Shown: positions 16,112 through 30,354, counted from the first letter of the stretch. The stretch: 64,000 bases of DNA from Candidatus Bathyarchaeia archaeon (GCA_049513715.1 JBEKVV010000001.1:256001-320000); one strand, 5' to 3'. A program made the numbers and translations. Notes: a model not told the origin generated them from the sequence alone.

Positions 16112-17014
16112 CTAAGCTGCGAGTTTGATCTCGGGCATGATTTTTCCGAGAGAGTCGCGAAGTGCCTGTATTTCTTGGGCGCTCATGTGGCGCAATGGTG
16201 GTTTGACCGTCCCGCTCCGTAATCCCCTCATCTTCAAGGCTTCCAGCAGTGGGGCGATGGGGGGGTTGCTCAGTGCGGACCGAAGCGCATGGATTCTCAG
16301 CTGTAAGGCTTTTCCCCGTTCGTAGTTCTTGTTCCTGTAAGCGTCGTACATTTCAACGAAGATTTCTGGAAAAGCGCTCGCGGTTGCAGAGACGCCCGCT
16401 GCGACGCCAGCGCAGAAGGCTGAAAATTGGTAGGAGTCAGTTCCGTTCAGTATGTTGAACTCGCTTGGTAATTTGTTCAGGTAGTCAAGTAGTTGCAGGA
16501 AATTTTGGCTGCTGTCTTTGATCCCTATGACGCGGGGAATTTTGCTGAGTTTCAGGAGCAGGTTCGCGTCGATGTTGTTTCCGGTATTGGGCGGTATGTT
16601 GTAGACGAGCAAGGGCAAGTTTGTTGCGCGCGACAGCCTTTGGTAGTGTTCAATGAACGCTTCTTCTCCTGGATGGTAATAGAATGGTGTTAGGTAGGCT
16701 ACGGCGTCCGCGCCGATTCCTTCAGCGTGAATAGCAAGCTCTATCCCAACTAGTGGGTCGGCGGCTCCGACCTGCACGATGACTGGTACGCGTCTCTTCA
16801 CTGCTTTAACTACGACCTCTGCAACTCTTTTTCTTTGCTCGGGTTGCATAACGGGGCCGAGGCCTGTGGTTCCGAGAGGAAAGAGCCCATTCACCTTACT
16901 CTTAATTTGGAATTCAACGAGTTCTTTCAATGAATCCTCTTCGACTTGGCCAGCGGAAGAGAAAGGTGTTACGAGCGCTGGAATCATACCGCGTAACTTG
17001 AGCGAGTTTGACAT
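16112..17014 (-). CDS. Dihydrodipicolinate synthase family aldolase/lyase
   Basis: ALVTPF, GTTG, YNIP, GIKDS (Schiff-base Lys). Confidence 0.9.
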   Translation of the reverse strand: MSNSLKLRGMIPALVTPFSSAGQVEEDSLKELVEFQIKSKVNGLFPLGTTGLGPVMQPEQRKRVAEVVVKAVKRRVPVIVQVGAADPLVGIELAIHAEGIGADAVAYLTPFYYHPGEEAFIEHYQRLSRATNLPLLVYNIPPNTGNNIDANLLLKLSKIPRVIGIKDSSQNFLQLLDYLNKLPSEFNILNGTDSYQFSAFCAGVAAGVSATASAFPEIFVEMYDAYRNKNYERGKALQLRIHALRSALSNPPIAPLLEALKMRGLRSGTVKPPLRHMSAQEIQALRDSLGKIMPEIKLAA

Positions 17015-17075
17015 TGTGTGCGCTCCGCTGTCAGTCGGAGTGTAGCACCGACTAAAAGGTATTGATTTCAGAGGG

Positions 17076-17666
17076 TTACGGTTTTCTGCGTTGCAGAAAC
17101 CGGGTAAGGCGAGTGGCCATCTTCAACGCGATTCTCCCGGGAAGAGTCACAAGGTAGCGGCCCCTGTCTCCCTCTTGGACGATTAGACCCGCCTCTTGGA
17201 GAGTCTTGAGGTGGTTCGATATTGTGCTTGGTGAAATGTCTTTGAGCACTGATTCTATTTCGCTAGCATATCTTCCTCCATACAGAAGCTCGGAGAGAAT
17301 TCGAAGGCGATGCTCGCTTGCAAGCGCTCCCATTAGTGAAGCGGCACGTTCAGCCTCAGTGGCGTTCAGAGAGTGCGCGCTAACTCTCTCGATATGTCTA
17401 TCAAACCAAGCTCCAGTCGGATCCACAAGGACTGATTTCTCGATTTCAGAAGAAATGCCTGACATGACGCTTTCAACAACATCGCTCACGTAGTCACCTA
17501 TTGACTGGCCCAAATTGCGGTTTGGAGTACGTTCCCGTGTCTTGCTGCTGGGCGGTGGAATCGATTCAGAGACCCGTCTGATATCTTCGCGGAGTTTTGC
17601 AACTTCCTCTTTCAGGTCGTCGATGCCTTCTCGACGTTCCTTGGTTGTGTCGTCCAATTCGTTCAC
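17076..17666 (-). CDS. ArsR/SmtB-type winged-helix regulator with N-terminal extension
   Basis: ALASEHRLRIL...SPSTISNHLKTLQEAGLI...GRY. Confidence 0.85.
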   Translation of the reverse strand: MNELDDTTKERREGIDDLKEEVAKLREDIRRVSESIPPPSSKTRERTPNRNLGQSIGDYVSDVVESVMSGISSEIEKSVLVDPTGAWFDRHIERVSAHSLNATEAERAASLMGALASEHRLRILSELLYGGRYASEIESVLKDISPSTISNHLKTLQEAGLIVQEGDRGRYLVTLPGRIALKMATRLTRFLQRRKP

Positions 17667-17712
17667 CGAATTTAATTCGTGTTGAATCGAATTGAATTCG
17701 TATATTATAAAT
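17667..17712 (-). promoter_or_regulatory. Two copies of palindrome CGAATT-N-AATTCG plus TATA box upstream of the ArsR gene
   Basis: CGAATTTAATTCG at 17667-17679 and CGAATTGAATTCG at 17688-17700; TTTATAATATA on the minus strand at about 17701-17711. Confidence 0.7.
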
Positions 17713-17775
17713 ATTGCTCACGTTGTGGGAGTTCCGATTATGGCCTTTCTGCTCTAAATCTCCGTGACCGACCCG

Positions 17776-18582
17776 TTACTCCTCGAGTGTAACCTGCTGG
17801 TTTTCTTGGAGCTTGATGCGGTGCCAACGTGCATCAAAACCAATATCCTTCATGCTCCTCAGGCGAATCAGATTCTGGGCTGGGTCAGAAGTCTCATCAA
17901 GCTTGAAATCCACCACTCCATCGGCAGCGGCTTCGAACCGCTTGTAGACCCAATCGCTATGGACGCCCTTGATGAGGCTAGCTATGATTGTTGTATTGCG
18001 GAACTTAGCCATGGGAATAATCCTAGTCAACGAGAATTCAACCCAGTTTTTCTCCTCGTTGAATCGAGCCAAGATAGAACCGTCATCTATGATATTCAAT
18101 GAAGTTGGAAGAGGGGGCCCTCGCAACTGTTCCTGTGAGTAAAAGATACTCAGATCGGAAACCTTCATGGATCCGATGGCGAATGGCTCATTAGATTTCT
18201 GGCCGAGTGCCGCGGTATACCAATCCCAAATCCGTAGCTTTCCTTCTTCTTCTAGGGTCTTCGGATCTAGGCCCTGGCGTTTCAACTTGAGACGTATGCT
18301 CTCTGGGGGTTGTGTGGAGACGCTGTAGCTGACTTTGCCCCCGCCCTTTATCCACCCCACCACAATTGTGAGGGAAGCATTGAACCATTGTGAGGCGGGG
18401 TCGAACTCAACTAGAAGGTTTGTTCCCTGCGGCACAGGGCCAGTGGTCAATTCTTCGATTAGTGGAATTCGCACTGTCAGTCCCTGATCTAAGGGAGTTC
18501 GTACATGACTTAACTTCTGATGCTTGTTCCGAACAAATAGAGAGGTAGGAGACTGCCTGGCCGCTTCATCGTCTCTAGGCAC
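17776..18582 (-). CDS. KaiC/RAD55-like RecA-fold protein with degenerate Walker A
   Basis: IPLIEELT.G.VP.G...LV start and ADGVVDF..R.RSMK end typical of KaiC-like domains; P-loop position reads FDPASQWF; start probably about 18474. Confidence 0.72.
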   Translation of the reverse strand: MPRDDEAARQSPTSLFVRNKHQKLSHVRTPLDQGLTVRIPLIEELTTGPVPQGTNLLVEFDPASQWFNASLTIVVGWIKGGGKVSYSVSTQPPESIRLKLKRQGLDPKTLEEEGKLRIWDWYTAALGQKSNEPFAIGSMKVSDLSIFYSQEQLRGPPLPTSLNIIDDGSILARFNEEKNWVEFSLTRIIPMAKFRNTTIIASLIKGVHSDWVYKRFEAAADGVVDFKLDETSDPAQNLIRLRSMKDIGFDARWHRIKLQENQQVTLEE

Positions 18583-18880
18583 CTTTCGAGGTCGCGACCA
18601 ATGTCTCCGTTGACCCTAGCTCAATGCTGCACGCATCGAACAATTCTTGCAAGTATTGACCCATCGTTGTCAAATCGGGTGCGCGCCATACTACGACCAG
18701 GTCGTAGCGCCCGAGTGTGACGAAGGTGTGATCCTCGTGTATCCCTCGCTTGTGTCTGGCCAACTTCTGGTCCGCTTGGTCGATGGCTTTCATGAAGTTG
18801 GTCGGGGTCTTCCCTGGACTGAGTTTGACAAGTGTGATGAAGTAGTGCGCCTTTGTTCCGTCTGGCGCAGTAATCGGCAT
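18575..18880 (-). CDS. GYD domain protein
   Basis: YFITLVKL...TLGRYDLVVV..APD...TETLVA; ATG at 18880 within ORF 18575..18985. Confidence 0.75.
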   Translation of the reverse strand: MPITAPDGTKAHYFITLVKLSPGKTPTNFMKAIDQADQKLARHKRGIHEDHTFVTLGRYDLVVVWRAPDLTTMGQYLQELFDACSIELGSTETLVATSKGA

Positions 18881-19110
18881 TATTGCAAATCGATTAGGCA
18901 AACTGTTCACCTCAACAAACTGTCCACTTCGGTACCATATATCGCTTTGCAAAGAGCAATGGTTTTTGAGGTTGGTTTTTCTCAAGGCGGCGAGATTTGG
19001 GAAATTCGTAAAATAGGAAAATTCCCGGACACAGCTGTCCTTGAGCGGTAACGCCAGTCGACTTTGGCATCTTCCAAAATCCGGAGTGGGATTAAGGGGT
19101 CCCTCGAGGT

Positions 19111-19422
19111 CTAGGCTGGATTGGCCTTTTCACAGTCGTAAATGATTTCTCGCTCAAGTGCCCTGCCCTTCCTGAACTTCCAAATTTCAGCTCGGCCGCG
19201 GAAAGCTTCAGCCCACACTTTCAGCGTCTCTTTCTCGGTTTTGCTTGCGCGGCCCTTTCCGCTCTTTACTTGAACCATTAGAATTCGGCCATCCCGGCCT
19301 GCAAAGATGTCAACGGGGCCGTGGGAGGCTGCGCTGCGGCTGCAATACCACCCTTCTTGCCTCAATTTTCGCAGCACCTGGTACTCGCGGCTACGGCCTC
19401 TAGTATAGGGTGTGGAAACCAT
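19111..19422 (-). CDS. hjc: Archaeal Holliday junction resolvase-like PD-(D/E)xK nuclease
   Basis: RGRSREY..L..LR.EGW...RSAAS..PVDIFA....VQVK. Confidence 0.75.
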   Translation of the reverse strand: MVSTPYTRGRSREYQVLRKLRQEGWYCSRSAASHGPVDIFAGRDGRILMVQVKSGKGRASKTEKETLKVWAEAFRGRAEIWKFRKGRALEREIIYDCEKANPA

Positions 19423-19549
19423 TCCTCAATCCGGCCCTCTTGATTTCCTATTCTCAATCATATACATGTTCCAGTGGATACGGGGACGGGTGGTTATCTT
19501 TGATGCGGAGATGTAAAACACTTAAGGCGCTGTAAATCGGTCTCATCGA

Positions 19550-21241
19550 GTGGGACGACCCGCTTTGCGCTCTTCAACCCGCCTGCTAGTTTTGTCAGCG
19601 CTATTTGTGGGCTTGTTTGCTCTTCTGAATCCAGCTGTTCGCGCCCAACCCATTTACACCGTCACAGTCACGGTTCAAGGGTTGCCAGATACTGCGAGTA
19701 CAGTGGTCTACGTTGACGGTGGCGCAAACGGAACTCTCTCTGGCGGCCAATCGCGCACATTCACTTTCATGTTCGCGAGCTCACCTCACATAATCACAGT
19801 GGACTATTACGTTCCTAATGTCGGAGCCAACGGCACGAGGTATTATGATAAGGATACTTCTTGGACGTTCAACGGCACGGCCAACCATGTCTTCACTTAC
19901 GTGACCCAATACTACCTTGAAGTGAAATCCTCATACAGCACATCGGGAGGGCAGGGATGGTATGACGCGGGGACGTCGGTTCAAGCCACCATTCAGGACG
20001 CTCAAGTAGGCGAGGGCGCGGGTACTCGGAACGTCTTCGCTGGTTGGTCTGGAGATGCGACCGGCAAGGATCTGAGTTCCGTAACTATATCCATGAATGG
20101 GCCGAAGACAGCAGTTGCTACTTGGAAAACGCAGTTCTACCTGAATGTAGAATCCGACCCGCCTAGCGTCAGCAACCTGAATGGGTCAGGTTGGTACGAC
20201 GCAAATAGCGTTGCGAATTTCTCCGCGCCCACAGTCATATCAGCGAATGACAATTCTCGGTTGAGGCTGAGTCATTGGACGGGTGCCTACAGTGGTAGCG
20301 ACCCTACGGGCAGCACTGTGATGGATCAACCCAAGTCGGTTAAGGCGAATTACATCGCACAATACCTGCTAACCGTAGAGTACAATCCACACAGCATCAC
20401 AACTTCCTACAATGAAACCCACACCGGCTGGTTCGACGCGAACACGAACGTGCAACTCGGTCCCGCACCGGCCACAATCACGCTCAGCACTGTGGAGAGG
20501 ATTCGATTCCTACAATGGGATGTGGACGGCAACACAAGCACCAATCTTTCGATGACGGTCCTTATGGACAAGCCGCACAAGGTTGCGTTGGCGTACAAGA
20601 CACAGTACTTCGTTGAAGTTCGCTCGTCCTATGGTTCAGCGACTGGGACCGGGTGGTATGACCAAGGGTCAACCGCAACGATAGCAGTCGCTGCGACGCA
20701 GGGAACATGGCCGATTTCATACGCGCTCACAGACTGGCGCGTAGATCCACCTACTGGAACGCTGACAAAAACGGGCGATTCATGGTCGTTGACTGTTGAC
20801 CGGCCATATGTCGTTGAAGCGGATTGGAACCTAGATTACGTGCCACTAATACTTGTCTTCGGTGGTGGTAGTGTCGCCATCGCCGCGGTTGCAGTTGGTA
20901 TTTTCTTCGCCAACCGGCGGGGGCTCTTCAATTTTGGTGGTCCAGTCCTCGGCTCTTTAGGACCAAAATCGAGGTTGCCGCGCATTCCTAGAGGGAGGGG
21001 AAGGGTCTGTAGCAGTTGTGGCAATCGCATCCCAGAGGGTGCGACCTTCTGTCAGAGATGCGGAGCGCCTGTTAGAGCGCCTGCTGTGCCGCCTTCTACT
21101 CTAGATGATAAGGTGTACGATTACATTGTCAAGCATGAAGGCGTGATTTCTACGAGCAAAGCATCGAGTGACCTGGGGCTGTCGGTTAATGAACTGAAGG
21201 AAATTACGGAGAGGTTGAAAAAGAAGGGGCTACTGACCTAG
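19550..21241 (+). CDS. Type I membrane protein: signal peptide, repeated extracellular beta domains, TM helix, zinc ribbon, C-terminal winged helix
   Basis: Hydrophobic N-terminus ending VRA-Q; about 4 repeats Q[YF][YL][LV].V....G.GW[YF]D; TM near IAAVAVGIFFA; CSSCG..IPEGATFCQRCG; LDDKVYDYI..HEG.I....S.DLG.....L.....RLKKKG. Confidence 0.8.
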   Translation: MGRPALRSSTRLLVLSALFVGLFALLNPAVRAQPIYTVTVTVQGLPDTASTVVYVDGGANGTLSGGQSRTFTFMFASSPHIITVDYYVPNVGANGTRYYDKDTSWTFNGTANHVFTYVTQYYLEVKSSYSTSGGQGWYDAGTSVQATIQDAQVGEGAGTRNVFAGWSGDATGKDLSSVTISMNGPKTAVATWKTQFYLNVESDPPSVSNLNGSGWYDANSVANFSAPTVISANDNSRLRLSHWTGAYSGSDPTGSTVMDQPKSVKANYIAQYLLTVEYNPHSITTSYNETHTGWFDANTNVQLGPAPATITLSTVERIRFLQWDVDGNTSTNLSMTVLMDKPHKVALAYKTQYFVEVRSSYGSATGTGWYDQGSTATIAVAATQGTWPISYALTDWRVDPPTGTLTKTGDSWSLTVDRPYVVEADWNLDYVPLILVFGGGSVAIAAVAVGIFFANRRGLFNFGGPVLGSLGPKSRLPRIPRGRGRVCSSCGNRIPEGATFCQRCGAPVRAPAVPPSTLDDKVYDYIVKHEGVISTSKASSDLGLSVNELKEITERLKKKGLLT

Positions 21242-21243
21242 GG

Positions 21244-21666
21244 TTAGAATGGCCAAGACCGGTTCTGTTCTTGCGGCTGGTAAACTATCTGAGGTTGTTG
21301 TTCGTACGCGTTGGGTGGGTGGCCAATTTTCGGAGCCAAGCCCCAGTAGCATTCAGGGCAGAAGTTCAGCATACCGTACTGTTTGTTGCACCCGGCGCAA
21401 ATGGATCTGCCACACCGAGAGCATACATATGACGACGGCAACTCGTTATGGTAGTAGCATGTTCCCGGCCGCGATACGTTCCTAGGGGTGTAGATTGGTG
21501 GAGCCATCGGGCTCGGGCCCGGAGTGGGCAAGCCAGTCAGCGGGGACTTCACCTCAACTTTGACGGGTGGTGTAAGTGAAGGCGCTTGCGATACTGCCGC
21601 TCCACAACTGTAGCAGAACTTAGCATTGTCTGCGTTGCCCCTGCCACAAACTCGGCATATTGCCAT
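21244..21666 (-). CDS. Zinc-ribbon + B-box-like zinc finger protein
   Basis: CRVCG..NADNAKFCYSCG, Pro-rich linker, C-x2-H-x8-C-x2-C-x4-C-x2-C-x9-C-x2-C; ATG at 21666 within ORF 21244..21696. Confidence 0.8.
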   Translation of the reverse strand: MAICRVCGRGNADNAKFCYSCGAAVSQAPSLTPPVKVEVKSPLTGLPTPGPSPMAPPIYTPRNVSRPGTCYYHNELPSSYVCSRCGRSICAGCNKQYGMLNFCPECYWGLAPKIGHPPNAYEQQPQIVYQPQEQNRSWPF

Positions 21667-21823
21667 GTCGTGTACCTTACAAAGAACTGCTCTCATGCAT
21701 TTCTTAACAGTTACTTACCCTGAAATGCTTCTCTCCATTCCCTTTCGCCACAAAACAAGGCTATTTCAGCGAGTGACGCTGCATTGGCTTATGAAATATG
21801 ACACGGTTGATGCAAAATCATTC

Positions 21824-23074
21824 CTAAATCAGCCTGAGGATTGATTCGCGCAGTTCTCCGTTTTTGCTTTCTGAAATGACTTTCAGGTAATCCCCATGTG
21901 CAAGCTTCTTAACCGCTCTAGGGAGAGGCTCTAGGCTTTCCTCTCCTTTGATGGTTTCAGTGAAAATTCTGACTTGTGCTTCTGTTCTGAGAGCTTCTCG
22001 AATCGCGCCTTGCGGAGTCTGGCTTGAGGCGTGGATTTTCGCGAGCACAAAGTCGAGTCGCGGCACAACTTCCTTTGCAGTTCCATCTTTTCCGCATACG
22101 AAGCATTTCTCGCCTCGCTTCAAATCCATTTGTGTAAATCGGTTGTTTTTCATGTCAATGAACAGTACTGATCGCAAGGGTGGCCCGCTTGTCTCTGGCC
22201 ATTTGTGTTTCTCTTGGAACGTTGCGAGTCCCAGGATCAGTTTGGTGGTTTCTTGGGCGACGATTGAGGAGACGAGTGAGATTGAGGTCGCGAAAGATGG
22301 AACGGCTTCCTGTTCTAATGGTGCATCGCATGGGTTTCGTAGACCCACGATGTGTGAGTATTGGTTTGGCGGGAACATGCAGATTGGGCAAGGGTCTTCG
22401 GGCGGGATGTAAACGTGGACTCTGGCATTCAGGCCAGTGATACCGCCGTCGACCAGGGGCGTCGAGTATTTTCTGCTTACTTGTGTTAGGAAAATCCTTG
22501 AGACAACATTGTCGAGTCCGCAAACAATCACGTCGGAATCCAGGTAGAGCTTCAAGGGCAGCGATTCCAAATCGCCCCTAAAGGCTGCGGTTTCCACGAA
22601 TGGATACTTTTTGTGTACGTTTTTTGCGAGAACCTCGGCCTTGTTCTTTCCCAAATTGGTGGGTTCGAAGAATATCATGCGGCTGACGTTTGACATTTCT
22701 ACTTTATCGCGGTCCACAATGAGAAGTTTGCCGATTCCAAGCATCGCCAGATTCTTGGCGACTTCGTTTCCTATGGCGCCTGCGCCAGCGATAAGGACGG
22801 TTGAGTTTCTAATCTTATTCTGCCCGTCTGAGCCCCAGGCAATTAGGTGCCTTGCCCAAAGGTAGTCTACGACCACTGGCTCGCCAGACACTTTGAGTTT
22901 CGACACTCGGGTTGCGTCAGGGAGATTTTTCCCTGCCAGAAGTAGTCTTGTGAGTTCCGGCTCGATGCCGAACTTTGCACAAACAAGTTTCTTGAGATCT
23001 CTGACAGTCTGGTTGGGGCTCAGCTCCATCTCGATTTGTTTGTATGAGGGAATGGAGGCTTTCAGGCGCATCAA
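21824..23074 (-). CDS. E1-like (ThiF/MoeB family) activating enzyme with N-terminal ubiquitin-like domain
   Basis: GAGAIG, DRDKVEMSNVSR, LDN..SR, CPIC and CFVC Zn pairs, candidate catalytic Cys in RNPCD; residues 1-70 ubiquitin-like (TVRDLK...RLLLAGKNL). Confidence 0.9.
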   Translation of the reverse strand: MMRLKASIPSYKQIEMELSPNQTVRDLKKLVCAKFGIEPELTRLLLAGKNLPDATRVSKLKVSGEPVVVDYLWARHLIAWGSDGQNKIRNSTVLIAGAGAIGNEVAKNLAMLGIGKLLIVDRDKVEMSNVSRMIFFEPTNLGKNKAEVLAKNVHKKYPFVETAAFRGDLESLPLKLYLDSDVIVCGLDNVVSRIFLTQVSRKYSTPLVDGGITGLNARVHVYIPPEDPCPICMFPPNQYSHIVGLRNPCDAPLEQEAVPSFATSISLVSSIVAQETTKLILGLATFQEKHKWPETSGPPLRSVLFIDMKNNRFTQMDLKRGEKCFVCGKDGTAKEVVPRLDFVLAKIHASSQTPQGAIREALRTEAQVRIFTETIKGEESLEPLPRAVKKLAHGDYLKVISESKNGELRESILRLI

Positions 23075-23670
23075 GTGGACGCCCTATGCTCTTTCCCCGG
23101 AATACTGAACCTGACAATGTCCCTGGGTCCTGAGGGTGTGACAGGTACTCGTGGGACGGGAACGACGTTGAAGCGGAGAGTGTCGTCAGCTTCTTTCTTG
23201 GGTTGTTGTTTGACCTTGGTCATCTTCGGGAAGCCGTAGGAACGGCACACGTTTGCCGCCTTCAGTGACCGGGGATGGTCGAAGACGTTCGAAGGGTTCG
23301 GGTCGGTTAGGAGGTAGTGTAAGGCGTTAACAACTGAAATGAGCCTGAGGCGCGGGTCCCACTTATCCCCGAGGATCGAAACGCAGACAGCGTTCGGTAT
23401 GTTCGGCACAATGTTGGGGTGTGAGATGTCGGAAAGCCACATTGCTACCGGCGGCTTCAGGGGGTACTCTGGCGTTAGGTCTAGCCGAAACCGGTTCCAG
23501 TCAGTGTACTCAGTGAAAGGCCAGACGCCCTTCTCGGAGAGCTTCTTTACCTCACCCTTCTCGCAGCGAATCAGGCCCTCGAATTGGGTGGGGGGGTCGT
23601 TGAGGGCCGTGATCGTGGGGAACTGGTGGTTCAGCAGGGTCTTCTCTTTGTAAAGTACAGTGGTGTCCAT
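23071..23670 (-). CDS. Ubiquitin-conjugating enzyme E2 (UBC fold)
   Basis: FRLDLTPEYPLKPP...ISHPNI...VCVSIL..KWDP...LLTDPN matches the UBC signature with HPN and catalytic Cys; stop overlaps the E1 start. Confidence 0.92.
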   Translation of the reverse strand: MDTTVLYKEKTLLNHQFPTITALNDPPTQFEGLIRCEKGEVKKLSEKGVWPFTEYTDWNRFRLDLTPEYPLKPPVAMWLSDISHPNIVPNIPNAVCVSILGDKWDPRLRLISVVNALHYLLTDPNPSNVFDHPRSLKAANVCRSYGFPKMTKVKQQPKKEADDTLRFNVVPVPRVPVTPSGPRDIVRFSIPGKEHRAST

Positions 23671-23681
23671 TTGGGTTGGCC

Positions 23682-23924
23682 TTACCCACCTATGATGTTG
23701 TACGGCATGAGGGCAAGTTGAGCGTTCTCGGGAATACCCAACCGCGCTACGGTTGTACTCTCGTCAAGTATGGCTCCACCATACATGAGAGCGACGGTGG
23801 TGGGATCGACGTTGAAGGACTGGCAGACCTGCTGCTTGATTTCGCCAACTGTGTGGTCTGGAATTACGTCAATCTCCGCCAAGCCTGTCTGCGGCCCGAT
23901 TGGAGCTTGGACGAACAGTTTCAT
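23682..23924 (-). CDS. Ubiquitin-like modifier with C-terminal diglycine
   Basis: MKLFV...TVGEIKQQV...LMYGGAIL...IIGG-stop; GGAGGTGA Shine-Dalgarno 10 nt before ATG 23924 (alternative start 23948). Confidence 0.92.
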   Translation of the reverse strand: MKLFVQAPIGPQTGLAEIDVIPDHTVGEIKQQVCQSFNVDPTTVALMYGGAILDESTTVARLGIPENAQLALMPYNIIGG

Positions 23925-23974
23925 CTGCGATGATTCACCTCCGCTCATGCTGGTCTGGCAATTCTATAGAGGAG

Positions 23975-23980
23975 CTTAAA
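23975..23980 (-). promoter_or_regulatory. Candidate TATA box (TTTAAG) for the Ubl-E2-E1 transcript
   Basis: TTTAAG directly after the JAB stop, about 27 nt upstream of ATG 23948. Confidence 0.4.
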
Positions 23981-25534
23981 CTATCTTACTATGAATTGAA
24001 TTGCCTGGGAATGGGTGACTCCGCCACCCGACGCGTTGATGGTTAGGGTGTATGATCCCCGTTTTACTGCCGTGGTTGTCGTGATTTGGAGTGTGATGGT
24101 GATGGTTCCGGTGCCACCGACCGTGTTTCCGCTTGTGGTCAGTTTGTACGTTGCCCCTTGAGGAAGGCCGTTGACAGTTACCGCCACAGGGTCTACGAAT
24201 CCGTGTTGCAAAGTTATCAGCAGTGTATAGGCGGTTGACGTCCCCGCAGACACCTGCGCAAGACTCGGCGAGACTTGCAGGTCAAAGTCAGCGACGGTGA
24301 CCGGTATCGTAACCTGGCGCGTAACTGGTTGGGCTCCGGAGGGGGAATAGGTGCTTTTCACCACAATTTGATACGTGCCGTTGGGAGTCGTTTGGGATGC
24401 TGCGAGTTTCATTGTTACTTTGGTCAAACCAATCGGAACGGGGTTGGGGTTGAAGCTTATCGCCAACCCGGATGGGGCGCCATCCGCAGAAAACGACACT
24501 TGTTGGCTGAAATCATTGATCATGAATAGATCCACTTCCTCAGATGCCGTTTGTGTTCGGTAAACGGTAAGCGTCGGAGTTCCTGGGGAGAGCGCAAAGT
24601 CTGAGATCAGGATTCGATATTGGCTTGTCTGTTTCTGGTTGCCTGCCTGATCAGCTGCCGCAATGTAGTACGCCAAGTTTCCAGTAACCTGCTGGCCTGG
24701 AATCGTGTACCCGTAGAAGCTTCCTTGCACCAGCGTCATTTTGACCGGGGCCAAGTTTGCGCCGGGTGCTGCGTAGTATAGTGTTACGTCTCGAACTGGG
24801 CCGGTAACGTTAGCTGTGATCTCAACGGGTGTTCCAACAGTGCCGGTTAGAACTGGGTTGTGAACAATCGCCAAGCCTGATGTCGACGGGGTGCCCCTGT
24901 ATAATATTGCGCCGATTAAGCCCGCGGATGCCACGAGCGTTATGAAAACCACGACCATGAGAGTGGTGCTTATTCGCTGCTTTGGCATGGGTCGGGGTTG
25001 GGGCGGGAGCAACTGTTGCTGCCGCACCTCGATCGTTGGCGTGGGTCGAGTAAGGGCTCTGGTTGGCTCCCGCGGGGTTGCCTCAAAGGCTTCTTCGGTT
25101 CGAACGCTCACCATTTCTTCAGGTATCCGAAAGGGTTTCTTGGTTTGTGGGTCGATTCTGAAGTATCCCACTTCTCCCGTGGTAGCGTCTATAACGACAC
25201 CTGTGACGAGGGAAGAGAACTGCTGAAGGGTCCTCTGTGTCTCAATGTCGGTTTCAGAAAAGAACACTCCACCCTCGGTGTGTGAGTGGTACCATCCTAC
25301 AATGTTGCCTTTCACCCGCCCACTAACCAAGTCATCGGCAATTTGGGCGAGCGTTGAGGGAGGTAGCGTTACTCGGTGCGGTTCTGATGAGAATTCGCCG
25401 GTAATTGAATCGTCAATAACGATGGAGTCACTTTCGCGCCGGCCAAGTAGAAGGCCGATTATTTCGTTTCTTGTCTCATGTGAAGCCTGGACGATTCGGT
25501 CGTAGACAGGCTTCCATATGCTCACATAAGACAA
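23981..25534 (-). CDS. JAB/MPN+ metallo-isopeptidase fused to a TM helix and extracellular Ig-like domains
   Basis: EIIGLLLG...VGWYHSHTEGGVFFSETD (E..HxH-x7-S-x2-D); TM TLMVVVFITLVASAGLIGAILY; Thr/Val-rich beta domains with two DF.L...G.P.G repeats. Confidence 0.9.
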   Translation of the reverse strand: MSYVSIWKPVYDRIVQASHETRNEIIGLLLGRRESDSIVIDDSITGEFSSEPHRVTLPPSTLAQIADDLVSGRVKGNIVGWYHSHTEGGVFFSETDIETQRTLQQFSSLVTGVVIDATTGEVGYFRIDPQTKKPFRIPEEMVSVRTEEAFEATPREPTRALTRPTPTIEVRQQQLLPPQPRPMPKQRISTTLMVVVFITLVASAGLIGAILYRGTPSTSGLAIVHNPVLTGTVGTPVEITANVTGPVRDVTLYYAAPGANLAPVKMTLVQGSFYGYTIPGQQVTGNLAYYIAAADQAGNQKQTSQYRILISDFALSPGTPTLTVYRTQTASEEVDLFMINDFSQQVSFSADGAPSGLAISFNPNPVPIGLTKVTMKLAASQTTPNGTYQIVVKSTYSPSGAQPVTRQVTIPVTVADFDLQVSPSLAQVSAGTSTAYTLLITLQHGFVDPVAVTVNGLPQGATYKLTTSGNTVGGTGTITITLQITTTTAVKRGSYTLTINASGGGVTHSQAIQFIVR

Positions 25535-25549
25535 TCGTTACACCGAAAG

Positions 25550-25586
25550 TAAAAAGGGAACAAAAAATTGGGGACCCTTGCGGGGT
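25550..25586 (-). terminator. Possible hairpin + T-tract after the membrane zinc-finger gene
   Basis: Minus strand reads ACCCC-GCAA-GGGT then AATTTTTTGTTCCCTTTT directly after the stop at 25589. Confidence 0.35.
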
Positions 25587-25588
25587 TG

Positions 25589-26422
25589 CTAACGTCCCAG
25601 CATGCCGAGTATTCCGCCCAGCACGCCAAGGACGAAGCCGGCCACAAAACCTCCGCCAATTATCAGACTCATTACAGCCAGCGGGAAGACAACGATGCTT
25701 CCGATGGTTCCGTACCCTAGTAGCATCAAAATCGAACCGATCACTAGGATGAGTCCGATGATAGCGCCGAGAGCGAAGGCAAGGCTTTGTGGAATCGATG
25801 TCGGTGGAGCCAACCAGAAGAAGATGCTCGACCACATTGTGTAGAACGAACTGGAGAGCAATGCTGCTGCGTTGAGTATGACCAGGATTCCTGCAATCAT
25901 GGAGAGTATGAATCCCCACAGAGCTCTTGGCGCACTCGGGGCCATGAACGGTCCCGGATAGGGTGCTGGCATGAAGGACGCTGGCGGGCCTGACATCGGT
26001 GGGGCCATCATTGGTCCCATTGGTGGGGCCATCGCTGGACCCATTTGAGGTGCGTAAGCCGGACTGTATTGGGGTGCCGGTTGCTGCGGATTTGCCATAG
26101 GTTGTTGGGCTGTCATAGGCACTATTCCTGCGTAACACTGAGGACAGAGAACAAGGTCCATATATGCTTTAGAGTCGTCTCTGCAGATTGCTCGTCCACA
26201 GCGGTTGCAAACGTAGATTGCTGGAAGGTTCGGGTGATAGAAGCATTGGCCAGGTGCTGGAACCCTAATTGGGCCGCCGGGGCTGACTGGGGTTACTACG
26301 CGGACTGATGGGACTGGTTTGAGTGCTGGGGCCATTGCGCCTGCAAGTGACGCGCCACAACTGGAACAGAATGCTGCATCGTCGCGGTTGTTGTAGCCAC
26401 ATGATGGGCATTTCTTGACCAT
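25589..26422 (-). CDS. Zinc-ribbon + B-box-like finger + Pro/Met-rich linker + multi-pass membrane domain
   Basis: CPSCG..NRDDAAFCSSCG; CFYH-x8-CNRC-x4-CRDD-x9-CPQC; about 4 C-terminal hydrophobic helices; AAAGGAGG SD at 26435-26442. Confidence 0.82.
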   Translation of the reverse strand: MVKKCPSCGYNNRDDAAFCSSCGASLAGAMAPALKPVPSVRVVTPVSPGGPIRVPAPGQCFYHPNLPAIYVCNRCGRAICRDDSKAYMDLVLCPQCYAGIVPMTAQQPMANPQQPAPQYSPAYAPQMGPAMAPPMGPMMAPPMSGPPASFMPAPYPGPFMAPSAPRALWGFILSMIAGILVILNAAALLSSSFYTMWSSIFFWLAPPTSIPQSLAFALGAIIGLILVIGSILMLLGYGTIGSIVVFPLAVMSLIIGGGFVAGFVLGVLGGILGMLGR

Positions 26423-27286
26423 TTTTCTAAATATCCTCCTTTAGCTAATTTAACACGGATTGACCGTGCTATGGTGAGCGCACTTAAGCATTTGCTCCAG
26501 CGTTGTCAAATTAGTGAATGGTAAAAGCCCAGTTATACCATTTTTTAGCGCAAACATAGGGGAGTCCCCAAAAATGGCTGCCACGAGCAGTTTTCGCGCA
26601 TCCGTTTGACAAAGAGAAAGCAATGAAACCCTTCGGAAATCTACTACGCGTTTCTGAACAGAACAATTTCATGATCAACCAGGCGCCCAACGTGACCAGT
26701 AATGCCGAGATTTCACCAAACGCGATTTTTCGTGGCCGCGATCTCGAAACATGGCCAAGGAAATTGCTCGATCACTGTTTCTCCGATCCCCTGCGTTGTA
26801 GCATAAGAAAATTCAGATCTCACGGCCTTCTGTAGGGCTAGGTACTGTGATGCCGAGAGGAGGAGTTGCATTCGGAATCTGCGGGGGTGTCCTGTGATTC
26901 GTTTGCGATGCGCCCGCCCCCTGTGGGTTGAGATGTAGCCTATTGGCGGGCGGGATGATGTCGTTTCGGTTTGCATAATGGCTCCCTTCCAGTCCTGGCT
27001 GGGTCAATTGGGTGCTCGCCTGCCTGCTGTTTGGAAATGTAAATAGTGGATGAACGCTTCTACGTGAGTTCGCTTCGTTCTTTGTACCTAGTGTCGCGAC
27101 GTGGGTTTTTTCGTTACTTAGTTATCTTCGCGCATGGCAAATGATTCATCTCTATCGGTGCAACGTGCTGAAGACACGTGTTTGTGGCTGTGAGTATCAT
27201 TCATGTCTGGCTACGAGTTTGCGTGAAATGCCTGTTGGATTCAGCAGATATTTAGCGAAGTTGTGCATAGGTGCGGTTTCGCGGAA

Positions 27287-27390
27287 GCCCCGGTGGCTCA
27301 GCCTGGTAGAATGATTGCCAACAGCGACGCCTTGGTAGCATAGTGACAATGAGGCGTAGGTCGCGGGTTCAAACCCCGCCCGGGGCTCCA
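27287..27390 (+). tRNA. tRNA-Thr(GGT) with two introns (about 27310-27322 in the D arm; 27338-27351 at 37/38)
   Basis: Acceptor GCCCCGG/CCGGGGC-T-CCA, anticodon arm ACGCC-TTGGTA^A-GGCGT, T arm GCGGG-TTCAAAC-CCCGC. Confidence 0.92.
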
Positions 27391-27531
27391 GTTTTTGCCG
27401 AACCTCACCAGCGAGTGCAATGACTCCGTTCAGCACGTTACATGATTTGATGCAAACTCAAGGCTAATCACTTATTCCGCTTCAGCCATTCCAACCTCAT
27501 TTCTCCAAGCATGATTGCGAATCGGATCTCT

Positions 27532-28360
27532 TTATCGCCTGGCACGGGGAGTTAAGTGCAGTCCTGTAGATACAATACTGAAAAGGAAAACAAGATACAA
27601 CCACACGTTCACGCCTGACCAATTTACGTTTGAAGCATAGCGCGCCAGCGCAGTCAATTCAAGTAAACCGAAGGCAACGTAACTCACTGAACCAGACCTG
27701 ACTCGTGTATAGTCCCTCTCTACGAGGGAATGTGAAGCGAAAATCCCAATACCCACCAACCACGCGCCGACCGCACGGGCCGTCAGAGGCGTAAGCTTCC
27801 ACAGCCAAACGCCAGCGAACATGGATGGAAACGTGAACAACCCCACCCCAATGACCAGCATGACGAACGCTTGAACGCCCAGAACCACGAGCAACCAAGA
27901 AGGAATAGGCATCTTCCGGGACGAATCGGAGCCCTTCTTCAACGCCTGTCGAAACAAGGCAAGGATCATTGCTGGAGGAACTAAACGCGTAGATCCCCAA
28001 CTATAACCATGCAGCAGCATTTGCGAAGGGGCTCGGGCTTCCAAAGTGAAATCGGTCTAGGTGGAGCAGTGTTGCCACAAGCGTCAAGGTTATGAATGCG
28101 AAAACCGCAGGGATCGCGATCCGCGCGTTCGCCCACTCTTTCTCTCGCGCCGCAAGGAACTCCATAAGGAAGCTGGCGAAGTATCCGGCGCCTAGGAAGG
28201 CTGCGGTAAGCGGAGGCTGAATTGTCCACGCAAAATAGAGGTCAGTCTGCTCGGTCAAAGTGAAAAGTTGGAATCCTGCCAGGAAGACAAGAGCGCTTGC
28301 AGCCAAGAGTAAGAGGCGCATACTCATCGTCAGCGGGACCGTGGTTCCTGAACCAGCCAA
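27532..28360 (-). pseudogene. Disrupted multi-pass membrane protein
   Basis: ORF 28001..28360 ends AAWL-TAG, continues LGIYA in frame, then shifts into LVPPAM.. of ORF 27532..28044; both halves share a W...PLTA...GA motif. Confidence 0.7.
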
Positions 28361-28691
28361 CCAGAATCAACATTCCCGAACGATGTTTGAACTTAAAGGT
28401 CGGTGTATAACTCGTTCGGGTATCAAAAAGAACCCAAAACGAAATGGAACCGCTGAAGTGTTGAGTTTGGCACATTTGCCCACTTCTTTATGGTAAATGC
28501 TTGGATGCGATAACGCGTACAGACTATGCCTCAGACCGCGGATGCAAGCTTCTGAATTCGCAACTTGCGGGGCGAAGGGCGGATTGAGGCATGTCAGCTG
28601 CAACAGGTTCCCTGAACGGCCCGCCCGGCTGAAAAAACATTAATGCGGGGTCCTTGCAGAAAGCAACCTCTCAGAGCAGGGTGGTTTTGGT

Positions 28692-29894
28692 TTGGAAGGT
28701 CCATTTGCGGAAGCTGTTCAGCTCGCTGGCCGACTGCGTAAGCTGAGTGAAGGTCAATTGAAGATTCTTGAGCGTGTAGATGAGGCCTCTCAAGAGCTGT
28801 ATCTCCCTGAGTTTGAGCATTACCTCGCCCACAAATACAATGAGGAAACGCCCAAGATTCTGAAAAAGTACGGTTTGATGGGTCTTACAGTCTCCTCAGA
28901 TTTCGGGGGGCTCGGTGCTGATTCTCTGACTTGGGCTCTGGCCTTGGAGCGGCTCGTAACCTTCGTTGATGTTCATTGCTTGTTGGCGGCGGTAGCGATT
29001 GAACAATGGGGCAGTGATTACCTGAAGAAGCAGTATCTGATTCCAGCGGCGAAGGGCGACAAAATCCTAGCATACGGTTTGACTGAGCCTGAAGCGGGGA
29101 GCGAGCCGACGAGACTAAAGACGAACTACGAGGAACGTGACGGCGGTTATGTCCTGAATGGAACGAAGTACTTGATTTCAAACGGCTCTATCGCGGACTC
29201 CCTGGTCATTTTTGCTTACCCGAAGGGCAAGACGCAGGGCATGTCAGCCTTTGTCGTTGATTCGAAATCTCAAGGGTTCTCGGTGGCAATGCACCTTGAA
29301 GAGAAGATTGGACTGTTCACGTCCGACACAGCCATGCTGGAATTGGCCAATTGCAAAGTGCCCAAGGAAAACCTGCTAGGACAACCTGGAAAGGGACTTC
29401 ACGTAGCCTACTCCGCGCTCTTGAACGGGCGAATCGGCATAGGGTCAGGTTGCGTCGGCGTAATCGAAGACTGCCTGACCGCCGTCATTGAACGCGCAAA
29501 GTCACGAGTCCAACATGGCAAGCTGATTGGGAAGCATCAGTTGATTCAAAGGCACATTTCCAACATCGCTATGAACCTGACAATGGCTCGGTGGCCTACG
29601 TACGTGGCCGCGTTAGAGAAGACCAAGCTGGACGCCGAGCCTGCCAACCTCGAACTACGCAACCAGGTCGATTTGCAGTCAGCCATCGCGAAACGCATTA
29701 CGTCTCGCATGGCGTATGAGAGCGCAGATTTGGCGGTTCAGGTGTTCGGTGGTTTTGGATACTCACTACTTTCACCTGTCGCCAGGCATTTGTGCGATAC
29801 GCGGGTTGCGAGGATTTATGAAGGCACGGACGAGATCATGGAGTTGAAGATTGCCTCCCTAATTCTAGGGAAGGGATTCGAAGCTTATAGTTAG
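28692..29894 (+). CDS. Acyl-CoA dehydrogenase
   Basis: YGLTEPEAGS, LNGTKYLISNG, R.Q.GK.IG.HQ, QVFGGFGY, RIYEGTDEI. Confidence 0.93.
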   Translation: MEGPFAEAVQLAGRLRKLSEGQLKILERVDEASQELYLPEFEHYLAHKYNEETPKILKKYGLMGLTVSSDFGGLGADSLTWALALERLVTFVDVHCLLAAVAIEQWGSDYLKKQYLIPAAKGDKILAYGLTEPEAGSEPTRLKTNYEERDGGYVLNGTKYLISNGSIADSLVIFAYPKGKTQGMSAFVVDSKSQGFSVAMHLEEKIGLFTSDTAMLELANCKVPKENLLGQPGKGLHVAYSALLNGRIGIGSGCVGVIEDCLTAVIERAKSRVQHGKLIGKHQLIQRHISNIAMNLTMARWPTYVAALEKTKLDAEPANLELRNQVDLQSAIAKRITSRMAYESADLAVQVFGGFGYSLLSPVARHLCDTRVARIYEGTDEIMELKIASLILGKGFEAYS

Positions 29895-29898
29895 AAGC

Positions 29899-30354
29899 TC
29901 ACTTGCCTGCCTTGGCTTTCAGGCGGGTCTCCATGTTTTCTACGACCTGCTCGACCATTTTGGTTGAAGTGGAATCCAGCAATTTCGTGCCCAACCCGGC
30001 CATTATTCCACCCACAGTAACATCTGCAACCCAACCAACTTTCGTTGCCGAGTTCGTTTCTTCCAGAGTGAAAGCGGTTTGGATGTCGACTGTGCTTCCC
30101 ACGCCTTTGCCCTTGCCGATTAGTTTGGCCGAACTCGGTGGGGTTTTCTCAGCCGCATGGAAATCAAAATCCATAGTTCCCCTAACTACTGAGAGGCCAA
30201 CCTTCACTTTGGCTTTGAATGAATCGGGGCCTAAGACTTCCAAGGATTGCATATCGGGGAAGCATGGTCCGATGTCATTGGGGTTGAGGAGAAATTCCCA
30301 CACCGTTTGCCGCGGAACGGGGGTCTCAAAGGATCCTTCTAAGTGCATTTTCAT
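29899..30354 (-). CDS. CoxG/SRPBCC family protein
   Basis: LEGSF..PRQTVWEFL..P..I..C.P...GG..A.LG..LL. Confidence 0.82.
   Translation of the reverse strand: MKMHLEGSFETPVPRQTVWEFLLNPNDIGPCFPDMQSLEVLGPDSFKAKVKVGLSVVRGTMDFDFHAAEKTPPSSAKLIGKGKGVGSTVDIQTAFTLEETNSATKVGWVADVTVGGIMAGLGTKLLDSTSTKMVEQVVENMETRLKAKAGK

Follow-up and report, generated by a model that had tools for sequence, protein, structure and literature searches.

The 64,000-nt window analysed here, taken from a Candidatus Bathyarchaeia archaeon (GCA_049513715.1, JBEKVV010000001.1:256001-320000; all positions are those of the window), carries an operon for what appears to be a eukaryote-type system of ubiquitin-like conjugation built around membrane components. 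Six genes on the minus strand encode, in the order of transcription, a membrane protein that combines a zinc ribbon with a B-box-like domain, a membrane-anchored protease of the Rpn11-like JAMM/MPN+ type (JAB), a ubiquitin-like modifier (Ubl), a UBC-type conjugating enzyme (E2), an activating enzyme (E1) and a second, soluble zinc-ribbon/B-box protein; a seventh gene, convergent with the last of these, encodes a surface protein (Table 1). The domain identities, catalytic residues, membrane topology and co-inheritance described below are drawn from sequence, structure model and comparative genomics. That E1, E2 and Ubl constitute a genuine cascade is, in our judgement, very probable; towards the fuller proposal, namely that a working eukaryote-type system of Ubl conjugation and deconjugation operates at the inner face of the membrane with the B-box proteins as its ligases (E3s) or adaptors, the balance of the evidence tips only slightly.

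The first-pass annotation of this stretch, made from its sequence alone, had called the six genes at the coordinates and in the order that the listing of open reading frames (ORFs) also gives, had described Ubl, E2 and E1 as tightly coupled and had assigned the corresponding domains; these statements stand, given that ubiquitin, UQ_con, ThiF and JAB are all matched above their Pfam cut-offs and that the spacing in the order of transcription is 54, 32 and 11 nt, an overlap between E2 and E1, and 127 nt. The overlap of the E2 stop with the E1 start amounts to 4 nt if the E1 begins at a TTG and to 1 nt (TGATG) if it begins at the in-frame ATG one codon on. Its view of the system as eukaryote-like is borne out by the nearest solved relatives, which are Uba1, Rad6-type E2s, ubiquitin, and the Ubl and Rpn11-like protein of Caldiarchaeum, and its emphasis on membrane components agrees with hydropathy, by which three of the gene products are predicted to be membrane proteins. 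Its inventory was correct for the six genes and incomplete otherwise, as it missed both the conserved seventh gene and the additional N- and C-terminal domains of the E1.

Table 1. Genes of the ubiquitin-type locus in the order of transcription, followed by the convergent seventh gene.
Product	Position	Strand	Basis or remark
Membrane zinc-ribbon + B-box protein, 277 aa	25589..26422	-	ORF call, Pfam, hydropathy
Membrane Rpn11-like JAMM/MPN+ protease (JAB), 517 aa	23981..25534	-	ORF call, Pfam, hydropathy
Ubl ending Gly-Gly-stop, 88-aa ORF	23682..23948	-	Likely start 23924 (80 aa)
UBC-type E2, 199 aa	23071..23670	-	Pfam UQ_con
E1, 416 aa	21824..23074	-	Pfam ThiF + N-terminal ubiquitin domain
Soluble zinc-ribbon + B-box protein, 150 aa	21244..21696	-	Pfam, AF2 model
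Seventh gene, convergent type-I surface protein, 563 aa	19550..21241	+	ORF call, Pfam, hydropathy

The modifier and the enzymes of the cascade

The Ubl matches the Pfam ubiquitin family with 38.9 bits (cut-off 25.4), and its sequence matches in the PDB are ubiquitin and the Ubl of Caldiarchaeum (6fj7, 1e-6). Across the order it is 79-97% identical, and the Gly-Gly is retained in 38 of 38 orthologues, 19 of which carry 1-8 variable residues past it; a tail of this kind corresponds to the precursor form that, in the available text of PMC5654768, is trimmed by the JAMM protease in Caldiarchaeum. Since the motif GGAGGTG lies just upstream of the ninth codon and most orthologues start there, the ninth codon is the likely start, and the gene product, to go by these sequence features, is probably 80 residues long.

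The E2 scores 52.5 bits against UQ_con (cut-off 27), and its closest solved sequences belong to the Rad6/UBE2 family (E 1.4e-12). Both the H84-P85-N86 triad and C96, at the catalytic position, are invariant in 41 orthologues, and a C-terminal tail of about 55 residues carries two conserved Arg-Phe motifs. The host genome contains a single UQ_con gene in all; in these metagenome-assembled genomes (MAGs) the NCBI label of the gene is "ubiquitin-conjugating enzyme E2".

The E1 (Pfam ThiF 163.6 bits) comprises a ubiquitin-like domain (2-71; 39.4 bits to the Pfam ubiquitin family), an adenylation domain (74-316, with GxGxxG at 97-102) and a UFD-like beta-grasp domain (339-415), together with zinc motifs at C229/C232 and C324/C327. 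Across 40 orthologues there is no variation in the GxGxxG motif, the ATP/Mg residues, the two CxxC pairs or C249, and sequence similarity to solved relatives is highest for Uba1 (2e-28), followed by ThiF (6e-19) and MoeB (3.5e-13). An AlphaFold2 (AF2) model of good quality (pLDDT 88.9, pTM 0.88) places C249 on a disordered crossover loop (244-256). Structural comparison with VIA-align recovers the MoeB core (Z 31.1 over 234 residues), as well as alignments to UBA3, UBA1, UBA7 and the SUMO E1 that extend over 291-313 residues and reach the last residue; those to UBA3 (2nvu_B) and UBA1 (9mc5_A) cover 313 residues (model 40-416) and 306 residues (to chain residue 1058), respectively. That the alignments to eukaryotic E1s run to the C-terminus fits a UFD-like domain in its canonical place; judging by the model, the C-terminal domain appears UFD-like and its recruitment of the E2 is putative.

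A core with the MoeB/ThiF fold (Z 31), together with sub-threshold matches to the NCBIfam models of ThiF, MoeB and the SAMP-activating E1 (UbaA), might suggest that the Ubl is only a sulfur carrier, which as a thiocarboxylate would serve the thiolation of cofactors or tRNA in the manner of ThiS, MoaD and SAMP. We regard this as the next thing to implausible, because the E1, which itself has a UFD-like end and no rhodanese domain, is strictly co-inherited with a UBC-type E2 (HPN and Cys) and an Rpn11-like protease. Moreover, no NCBIfam model of sulfur transfer reaches its cut-off (those of ThiF, MoeB, UbaA and the desampylase all fall far short, e.g. 108.8 versus 275 bits), and the other of the two ThiF-family genes in the genome, located elsewhere, is a separate, canonical ThiF/MoeB with 255 bits.

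The membrane-anchored protease

The JAB domain (Pfam 43.8 bits, cut-off 22.5) occupies residues 1 to about 140, and the copy in the window has the full JAMM motif (E24, H83, H85, S93 and D96), of which the H-x-H, the S and the D are conserved among orthologues. The best solved relative is the Rpn11-like protein of Caldiarchaeum (6fjv, E 1.2e-14), followed by CSN5 (8e-10) and Rpn11. Hydropathy predicts a single transmembrane (TM) helix at about 190-212, which by the positive-inside rule leaves the N-terminal JAB domain in the cytosol and some 300 residues outside; in this ectodomain only weak Ig-like matches were found. JAB proteins range from 212 to 613 residues, with ectodomains of different length in different lineages, and the 212-residue protein, from another Bathyarchaeia order (L122), is tail-anchored without any ectodomain.

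The first-pass annotation had singled out the membrane JAB as a distinctive trait. In part this is upheld, as, of the five loci compared from other families of the phylum, four have a soluble JAB (L116, L117, L118 and L121), and in part it has to be narrowed: a 266-residue Rpn11-like JAB with a strongly hydrophobic C-terminal helix (19-aa hydropathy 3.04) is found in G417 (L119:6845-7645), where it adjoins Ubl-E2-E1 genes whose E2 is of the full-length UQ_con type, so that tail-anchoring of the deubiquitinase is not confined to Bathyarchaeia.

Some loci present variants of the modifier and its processing. L020 and L034 combine a JAB in which the Glu of the JAMM motif is substituted with Ubl precursors that nevertheless bear tails past the Gly-Gly, and how these are matured is a question. 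In L094 (12022-12897; a Thermoprotei-labelled MAG) and L121 (7232-8050; G429) the Ubl and the E2 are fused into proteins of 291 and 272 residues, respectively, whereby an N-terminal ubiquitin domain is joined to a UBC domain; the former adjoins a Ubl-E1, a 595-residue JAB and a ribbon/B-box protein (B-box 28 bits, above the Pfam cut-off), and the latter a soluble JAB.

Conservation and inheritance of the locus

In a first set of loci, the surroundings of 20 E2 genes from relatives, Ubl, E2 and E1 are present in 20/20 and the JAB in 19/20 (it is missing from L031); the membrane B-box protein is found in 18/20, the two misses being a contig end and an 8.9-kb insertion (L047), a second B-box gene follows the E1 in 18/20, and the convergent surface protein is present in 19/20. 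A second set, anchored on the membrane B-box protein, comprises 79 loci, of which 54 have a full-length anchor and 41 are informative in that 7.3 kb or more of sequence lie downstream. Of these 41, 38 combine a JAB, in each case with a TM helix, with Ubl, an HPN-bearing E2 and E1; 33 have the second B-box gene and 37 the gene for the surface protein. The loci outside the 38 are L047, with its insertion, and L061 and L088, which represent additional copies of paralogues. The repetition of this gene order in 38 of 41 informative loci of other genomes takes the locus far beyond chance, and with it the neighbourhood conservation by which the first-pass annotation had suggested that its proposal be checked is confirmed. 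As for the insertion case (L047/L026, G013:C22), the membrane B-box and JAB genes, which in other genomes lie about 50 nt apart, are separated by about 8.9 kb, and this spacer is probably an insertion.

Sequences closely related to the E2 and the membrane B-box protein bear the label Candidatus Bathyarchaeia or Bathyarchaeota and stem mainly from soil and peat MAGs. Three operon contigs are filed as bacterial MAGs (L039, L043 and L067, under Methylomirabilota, Acidoferrum and Acidiferrales), labels that probably reflect binning contamination in public records. UQ_con was found in 35 of 41 genomes of relatives as compared with none of 14 control genomes, in 55 of 301 genomes of the class (51 of 78 in the order to which the host belongs and 3 of 222 elsewhere, one of these weak and broken) and in 70 of 401 genomes of the phylum, where four other families have an E2 whose match to UQ_con (about 1e-30) covers the profile in full. 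A census of 44 genomes of the host's own family, each at least 80% complete, shows that the E2 and the zinc-ribbon/B-box part of the membrane protein follow the same genera: they occur, respectively, in 16/17 and 17/17 genomes of genus g1 and in 7/8 and 8/8 of g14, and both are absent from g2 (0/15), g3 (0/2) and g15 (0/1). Three weak matches in g2 are to the TM part only, two of them interrupted by six stop codons (G086:C54:18152-18616 and G023:C35:41598-42053), and these remnants look like decay following loss of the system. To judge from the sequences, the E2 and the B-box parts would have been lost together, in what may have been one or two events if the kinship of the genera is considered. 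The cluster is inherited within one order and under strong purifying selection.

Antiviral defence, which the first-pass annotation had offered as one possible function, fares poorly in the light of this distribution. Bacterial operons that contain Ubl, E1, E2 and JAB without an E3 act in phage defence, as stated in the available text of PMC10557695, and the adenylation core of the E1 does match the PADLOC models of E1-E2 proteins of the Cap2 type (E 1.5e-17), from which it could be supposed that the locus belongs to the Bil or CBASS-Cap2/Cap3 kind and conjugates its Ubl to viral proteins. However, PADLOC has no match for the E2, the Ubl, the JAB or the B-box proteins, so that only the generic E1 core is recognised; a classical UBC-type E2 is paired with an Rpn11-like JAB; the cluster keeps a fixed place beside the gene for the Holliday-junction resolvase Hjc (43/99 loci) in housekeeping surroundings, with no mobile-element genes in the window; its occurrence tracks taxonomy (51/78 in the order against 3/222 in the rest of the class); and a Ubl identity of 79-97% is the opposite of an arms-race pattern. 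We therefore deem a defensive role very unlikely.

The zinc-ribbon/B-box proteins

The membrane B-box protein begins with a cytosolic, RanBP2-like ribbon (ligands C5, C8, C19 and C22), which is followed by a binuclear domain (C60, H63, C72, C75, C80, D83, C93 and C96), a Pro/Met/Gln-rich linker and, by hydropathy, about four TM helices (164-277). Its soluble counterpart consists of a ribbon (C14, C17, C28 and C31), a disordered linker, a B-box domain (C80, H83, C92, C95, C100, C103, C113 and C116) and a Gln/Pro-rich tail. Both exceed the Pfam cut-off for Zn_Ribbon_1 (33.3 bits in the membrane protein). The eight ligands, arranged as C-x2-H-x8-C-x2-C-x4-C-x2-[C/D]-x9-C-x2-C, are invariant in alignments of 18 soluble, 18 membrane and 46 mixed orthologues, with D or C at position 83 of the membrane protein; zf-B_box is matched at E<=0.01 by 43 of the 46 family members (best 5.3e-7), and relatives score above its cut-off with 28.0 and 26.8 bits in one set and 35.0, 29.7 and 28.0 bits in another.

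In the AF2 model of the soluble protein, the ribbon (pLDDT 89) and the B-box domain (pLDDT 95) are separated by the disordered linker, and a VIA-align fold search of 48,161 chains aligns the latter (about 70-125) with cross-brace fingers, namely those of FYVE, Slp-homology and RIM proteins (Z 4.8-4.2), the piggyBac cysteine-rich domain and PHD, and also with the TRIM39 RING (Z 2.8) and the MID1 B-box1 (Z 2.5). On the strength of the model, membership of the cross-brace superfamily seems supported, the family not being resolved at these Z values. A Foldseek search of the PDB with the whole B-box model gave no match at E<=0.001 and returned a mix of LIM, FYVE, RING and PHD entries, and sequence and profile searches of the PDB matched the ribbon only (DZANK1, ArnA and eL40), leaving the B-box unmatched.

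These results modify the statement of the first-pass annotation that the locus lacks a RING E3. It is correct insofar as no RING family reaches threshold in the proteins of the window, in which the only hint is Prok-RING_1 in the 277-residue protein (18.1 versus 29.1 bits); it needs revision insofar as the two B-box proteins have RING-like eight-ligand domains and one of them sits in the RING slot, the soluble B-box gene lying directly after the E1, where G328, a genome from another family of the phylum, encodes a 75-residue protein with zf-RING_2 at 39.6 bits. The invariant RING-like eight-ligand domain and the position after the E1 lead us to read these proteins as candidate E3s, and their sequences suggest that they are probably E3s or adaptors; for the role of E3 as such the case is evenly poised.

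A different account can be given if weight is placed on the ribbon rather than on the B-box: the cascade would be real and the E2 would work without an E3, the ribbon/B-box proteins being Ubl receptors, scaffolds or main substrates whose ribbon binds the Ubl or the N-terminal domain of the E1 and docks the machinery at the membrane, with the B-box serving oligomerisation only. The ribbon has the spacing C-x2-C-x3-N-x6-C-x2-C with a near-invariant Asn, and its model (6-38) aligns over about 30 residues with RanBP2-type fingers (Z 3.5-2.5 overall), including Nup153/RanBP2 and, along its full length, the ubiquitin-binding NZFs of Npl4 (1q5w; Z 3.2, root-mean-square deviation 2.5, 31 aa) and of TAB2 in complex with diubiquitin (7e62; Z 3.2); Pfam Zn_ribbon_RanBP is matched at E<=0.01 by 7 of the 46 family members, all of them below the cut-off. 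The same ribbon recurs in the cytosolic tails of the seventh protein and of an 819-residue surface protein that shares the four-helix domain (see below), and the absence of a sequence link between the B-box family and the RING of G328 would fit this account as well. On the other hand, ubiquitin-binding NZF fingers have as their defining signature a conserved Trp and, following the second Cys, the pair Thr-Phe, and the ribbons here lack both: Gly-[Arg/Tyr/Lys] stands in place of the pair, and there is no Trp ahead of the first Cys; ribbons of this type are, besides, very common and not tied to ubiquitin (21 matches in the host genome, and occurrences in FHA proteins, ArnA and DZANK1), and the invariance of the eight B-box ligands and the location behind the E1 favour a catalytic partner. 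We consider a purely receptor-like or scaffolding role doubtful, though a contender to be taken seriously.

Some further observations concern the family at large. Elsewhere in the genome, beside a gene for a thermosome subunit, lies a third ribbon/B-box paralogue of 121 residues whose eight-ligand motif is complete (L115:5141-5506, minus strand, G000 contig C2), which makes three candidate B-box partners for one E2. A profile of the B-box family yields 16,053 matches at E<=0.001 among 1.84 billion representatives, mostly multi-zinc-ribbon repeat proteins, and with only about 40 full-length family members among the top 150 matches this number says little on the range of the family. The membrane parts of B-box relatives are small multi-TM domains (DUF6114, DUF7144 or DUF4190). 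Apparent zinc-ribbon/B-box relatives in Actinomycetota without ubiquitin genes were dropped, as three of three examined proved to be zinc-ribbon proteins with FHA domains.

Surface proteins with a related ribbon

The protein encoded by the seventh gene has a signal peptide, an ectodomain of about 400 residues made up of InlB-B-repeat-like domains (Flg_new_2 24.8 bits, cut-off 23.6), a TM helix at about 430-452 and an Arg-rich cytosolic tail that carries the same kind of zinc ribbon as the B-box proteins (Zn_Ribbon_1 31.6 bits). Hints of a winged helix and of a UBZ finger in the tail are not significant (E 0.03 and 0.011), and its Atlas cluster is mostly Bathyarchaeota. The gene ends 2 nt from the stop of the soluble B-box gene, and its product is a candidate substrate, receptor or partner of the system.

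A second surface protein, of 819 residues, is encoded at L124:2785-5244 (minus strand, G000 contig C1). It, too, combines a signal peptide, a large ectodomain and a TM helix with a zinc ribbon in the cytosol; the ectodomain, which contains Ig-like repeats, resembles that of the JAB protein, and the protein ends in the four-helix membrane domain of the membrane B-box protein (E 9e-32). It matches no Pfam family, and orthologues of about 800-830 residues are present in most genomes of the genus. The four-helix domain common to this protein and the membrane B-box protein suggests an association module shared with surface proteins.

With two receptor-like proteins among the seven, each having a large ectodomain and a small cytosolic effector part, the locus might be a device for transmembrane signalling rather than for turnover, in which the ectodomains of the JAB and of the seventh protein would sense the exterior and switch on or off the ubiquitylation of a cytosolic tail, for instance the zinc-ribbon/winged-helix tail of the surface protein. 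The surface-protein gene is locked to the cluster, its stop being 2 nt away and its presence extending to 37/41 loci, and the length of the ectodomains varies between lineages (212-613 residues for the JAB proteins). Nevertheless, the ectodomains contain no recognised ligand-binding family, their matches being InlB-B-repeat-like and weakly Ig-like only; the winged helix called in the surface protein's tail falls short of significance (E 0.03); and in the other order represented by L122 the JAB is merely tail-anchored. A dedicated signalling device accordingly seems to us quite unlikely.

Proposed mechanism and points that weigh against it

If the locus encodes the conjugation and deconjugation system with B-box E3s or adaptors that we favour, its parts could act as follows; each catalytic step in this is inferred, as are the function of the B-box proteins as E3s and the choice of substrates. 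The E1 would adenylate the C-terminal Gly-Gly of the 80-residue Ubl, which would then form a thioester with Cys249 on the crossover loop. The UFD-like domain of the E1 would recruit the sole UBC-type E2, to whose Cys96 the Ubl would be passed. The four-TM and the soluble zinc-ribbon/B-box proteins, acting as RING-like E3s or adaptors, would bring the charged E2 to its targets, the likeliest of which would be the cytosolic parts of proteins in the membrane or at the surface, for instance the product of the conserved seventh gene. Removal of the tag would finally fall to the Rpn11-like JAMM protease in the membrane, which, in the orthologous systems with tailed Ubl precursors, would also mature the modifier.

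Several findings weigh against this scheme. In the two proteins of the window, zf-B_box (PF00643) scores 18.2 (membrane) and 18.8 bits (soluble), below its cut-off of 24.1, and the fold search, with Z values of 4.8-2.5 and FYVE-type fingers first, cannot tell a B-box or RING from FYVE, PHD or Rab-effector fingers. On their own, the B-boxes of eukaryotes mostly do not act as ligases. Between the B-box family and the RING protein of G328, hhalign gives a probability of 8.9%, i.e. no detectable homology, and at the level of sequence it looks as though one cross-brace finger had been replaced by another rather than diverged from it in a traceable manner. A second B-box gene is absent from 8 of the 41 informative loci (L055, L059, L062, L080, L087, L047, L061 and L088), the first five of which keep the JAB-Ubl-E2-E1 core, so that the soluble copy is dispensable. 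As for the enzymes, the E2 aligns only to positions 48-119 of the 140 of UQ_con, its N-terminal face for the binding of E1 and E3 being therefore divergent, and in five loci of other families (L019, L020, L021, L033 and L034) the general-base Glu of the JAMM motif is replaced by Gln, Arg or Lys.

A more far-reaching joint reading of the same elements would have it that B-box proteins, not RINGs, are the working E3s of an ancient archaeal ubiquitin system built at the membrane, in which the four-helix B-box ligase and the receptor-like Rpn11 write and erase marks on the zinc-ribbon tails of surface proteins, with the turnover of these proteins or outside-to-inside signalling as the effect. The RanBP2/NZF-like ribbon would in that case be the first ubiquitin- or E1-docking finger, and the whole a forerunner of ubiquitin-dependent sorting of membrane proteins and of the function of TRIM-type B-boxes. 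We put this forward as speculation and think it unlikely that it will hold in all its parts.

Comparison with known systems

The closest parallel is the operon of Ca. Caldiarchaeum subterraneum, in which rpn11 stands opposite ub-e2-e1-srfp and whose products were reconstituted in vitro, as described in the available text of the two reports (Hennell James 2017, PMC5654768; Fuchs 2018, PMC6043591). The arrangement in G328 (L116), a 202-residue JAB on the opposite strand to Ubl, E2, E1 and the 75-residue RING protein, equals the published one, as far as the accessible text of PMC6043591 sets it out. The bathyarchaeal locus resembles this type in having a Ubl with Gly-Gly, in many cases made as a precursor, an E1 that ends in a ubiquitin-like/UFD domain, a UBC-type E2, two cross-brace finger proteins per locus and an Rpn11-like JAMM protease, as well as in the order Ub-E2-E1, the tight coupling and the presence of a zinc-finger gene directly after the E1. 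It differs in that the fingers are zinc ribbon plus B-box instead of RING-H2; that the JAB and one of the B-box proteins are integral to the membrane, unlike the soluble JABs of L116, L117, L118 and L121; that the JAB gene is co-directional and upstream of the Ubl instead of divergent; that the E1 has an extra ubiquitin-like domain at its N-terminus; that the E2 matches the central half of UQ_con with 52 bits, compared with 103 bits in G328; and that a conserved surface-protein gene is attached.

Asgard archaea possess Ub, E1, E2, RING and JAMM proteins linked to ESCRT (PMC10936438 and 10.1101/2021.04.02.438162, in the parts available). The eukaryote-type cascade in an archaeon and the connection of ubiquitin with membrane processes, the latter proposed for Asgard in the same available texts, are common ground; the present locus belongs to another phylum, has B-box proteins where Asgard systems have RINGs, and builds the membrane anchoring into the enzymes themselves. 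No ESCRT-I/II or UEV genes were seen beside the operon within the window. With the Bil and CBASS Cap2-Cap3 systems, as presented in the accessible text of PMC10557695, it shares the association of Ubl, E1, E2 and JAB without a recognisable RING, and it departs from them in its classical UBC-type E2, Rpn11-like JAB, B-box partners, core-genome context and vertical inheritance. The Haloferax SAMP/UbaA/JAMM1 system and the ThiS/MoaD-ThiF/MoeB pairs have in common with it a beta-grasp modifier ending in Gly-Gly, an E1 of the ThiF fold and a JAMM protease, yet they are devoid of E2 and E3, whereas here the E2 is strictly co-inherited.

In eukaryotes, the pertinent set for comparison comprises the B-box/TRIM proteins, membrane-embedded RING ligases and JAMM deubiquitinases that are recruited to membranes. 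The ligand spacing of the bathyarchaeal domain is B-box2-like and Asp occurs as an alternative ligand, and a ligase (here a candidate) and a deubiquitinase are both placed at the membrane. In contrast to the B-box/TRIM proteins, there is neither a RING nor a coiled coil beside the B-box, the last ligand pair is Cys-Cys instead of His-His, and the domain is accompanied by a RanBP2-like ribbon and by small domains of several TM helices; for these membrane parts no homology to eukaryotic ligases was found.

The first-pass annotation had not recognised the architecture as described, and our search of full-text literature agrees, since it turned up no account of a ubiquitin operon in Bathyarchaeia, of partners of the B-box kind or of components anchored in the membrane, with the proviso that Burroughs et al. 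2011 may mention prokaryotic B-boxes. The text of the supplement of PMC5654768, whose gene-cluster figure is an image, does not contain "Bathyarchae", "B-box" or "transmembrane". What the available portions of published accounts of Bathyarchaeota MAGs offer are general remarks on M67 isopeptidases or on the "ubiquitin system" among eukaryotic signature proteins. Eukaryote-like cascades in archaea are central to ideas on the origin of ubiquitin signalling and have so far been those of Caldiarchaeum and Asgard, with small RINGs and soluble enzymes. The locus described here shows that a whole order of Bathyarchaeia, widespread in soil and sediment, retains a complete cascade under strong purifying selection, and that it does so with three differences, namely B-box fingers in the position of the E3, a Ubl-fused E1, and a candidate ligase and deubiquitinase that are embedded in the membrane beside a dedicated surface protein. 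Were the B-box proteins indeed ligases, B-box E3 activity and membrane-coupled ubiquitylation would predate eukaryotes. All of the parts are small, which renders reconstitution in vitro feasible, as it was for Caldiarchaeum.

Genomic context

The host genome amounts to 2.79 Mb on 11 contigs. Directly adjoining the seventh gene lies the gene for Hjc (19111-19422, minus strand), whose recurrence beside the cluster was counted over 99 loci that include non-operon loci and duplicates of the same contigs; it is a stable chromosomal landmark of the cluster, by which a functional link is not implied. The remaining genes of the window are housekeeping or metabolic ones, such as those for phosphoglycerate kinase (PGK), enolase, RpiA, a DinB-type polymerase, dihydrodipicolinate synthase (DHDPS) and a sensor kinase. 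A scan of positions 17000-30000 detected no tRNA, and a scan for consensus promoters and terminators, with a bacterial model applied to an archaeal host, found sites no more numerous than in shuffled sequences.

Soil metatranscriptome runs yielded only small shares of the locus, in that short contigs from two RNA-Seq runs of one study match stretches of the B-box, JAB, Ubl/E2 and membrane-B-box genes with 95-99% identity; given that such pieces can show neither transcription nor strand and that carry-over of DNA is possible, they were not counted as evidence of expression. Just upstream of the operon, two ORFs for membrane proteins of 170 and 119 residues (27532-28360, minus strand) overlap by 44 nt in different frames; neither has a match in Pfam or a counterpart in the related loci, and the two may represent one frameshifted gene.

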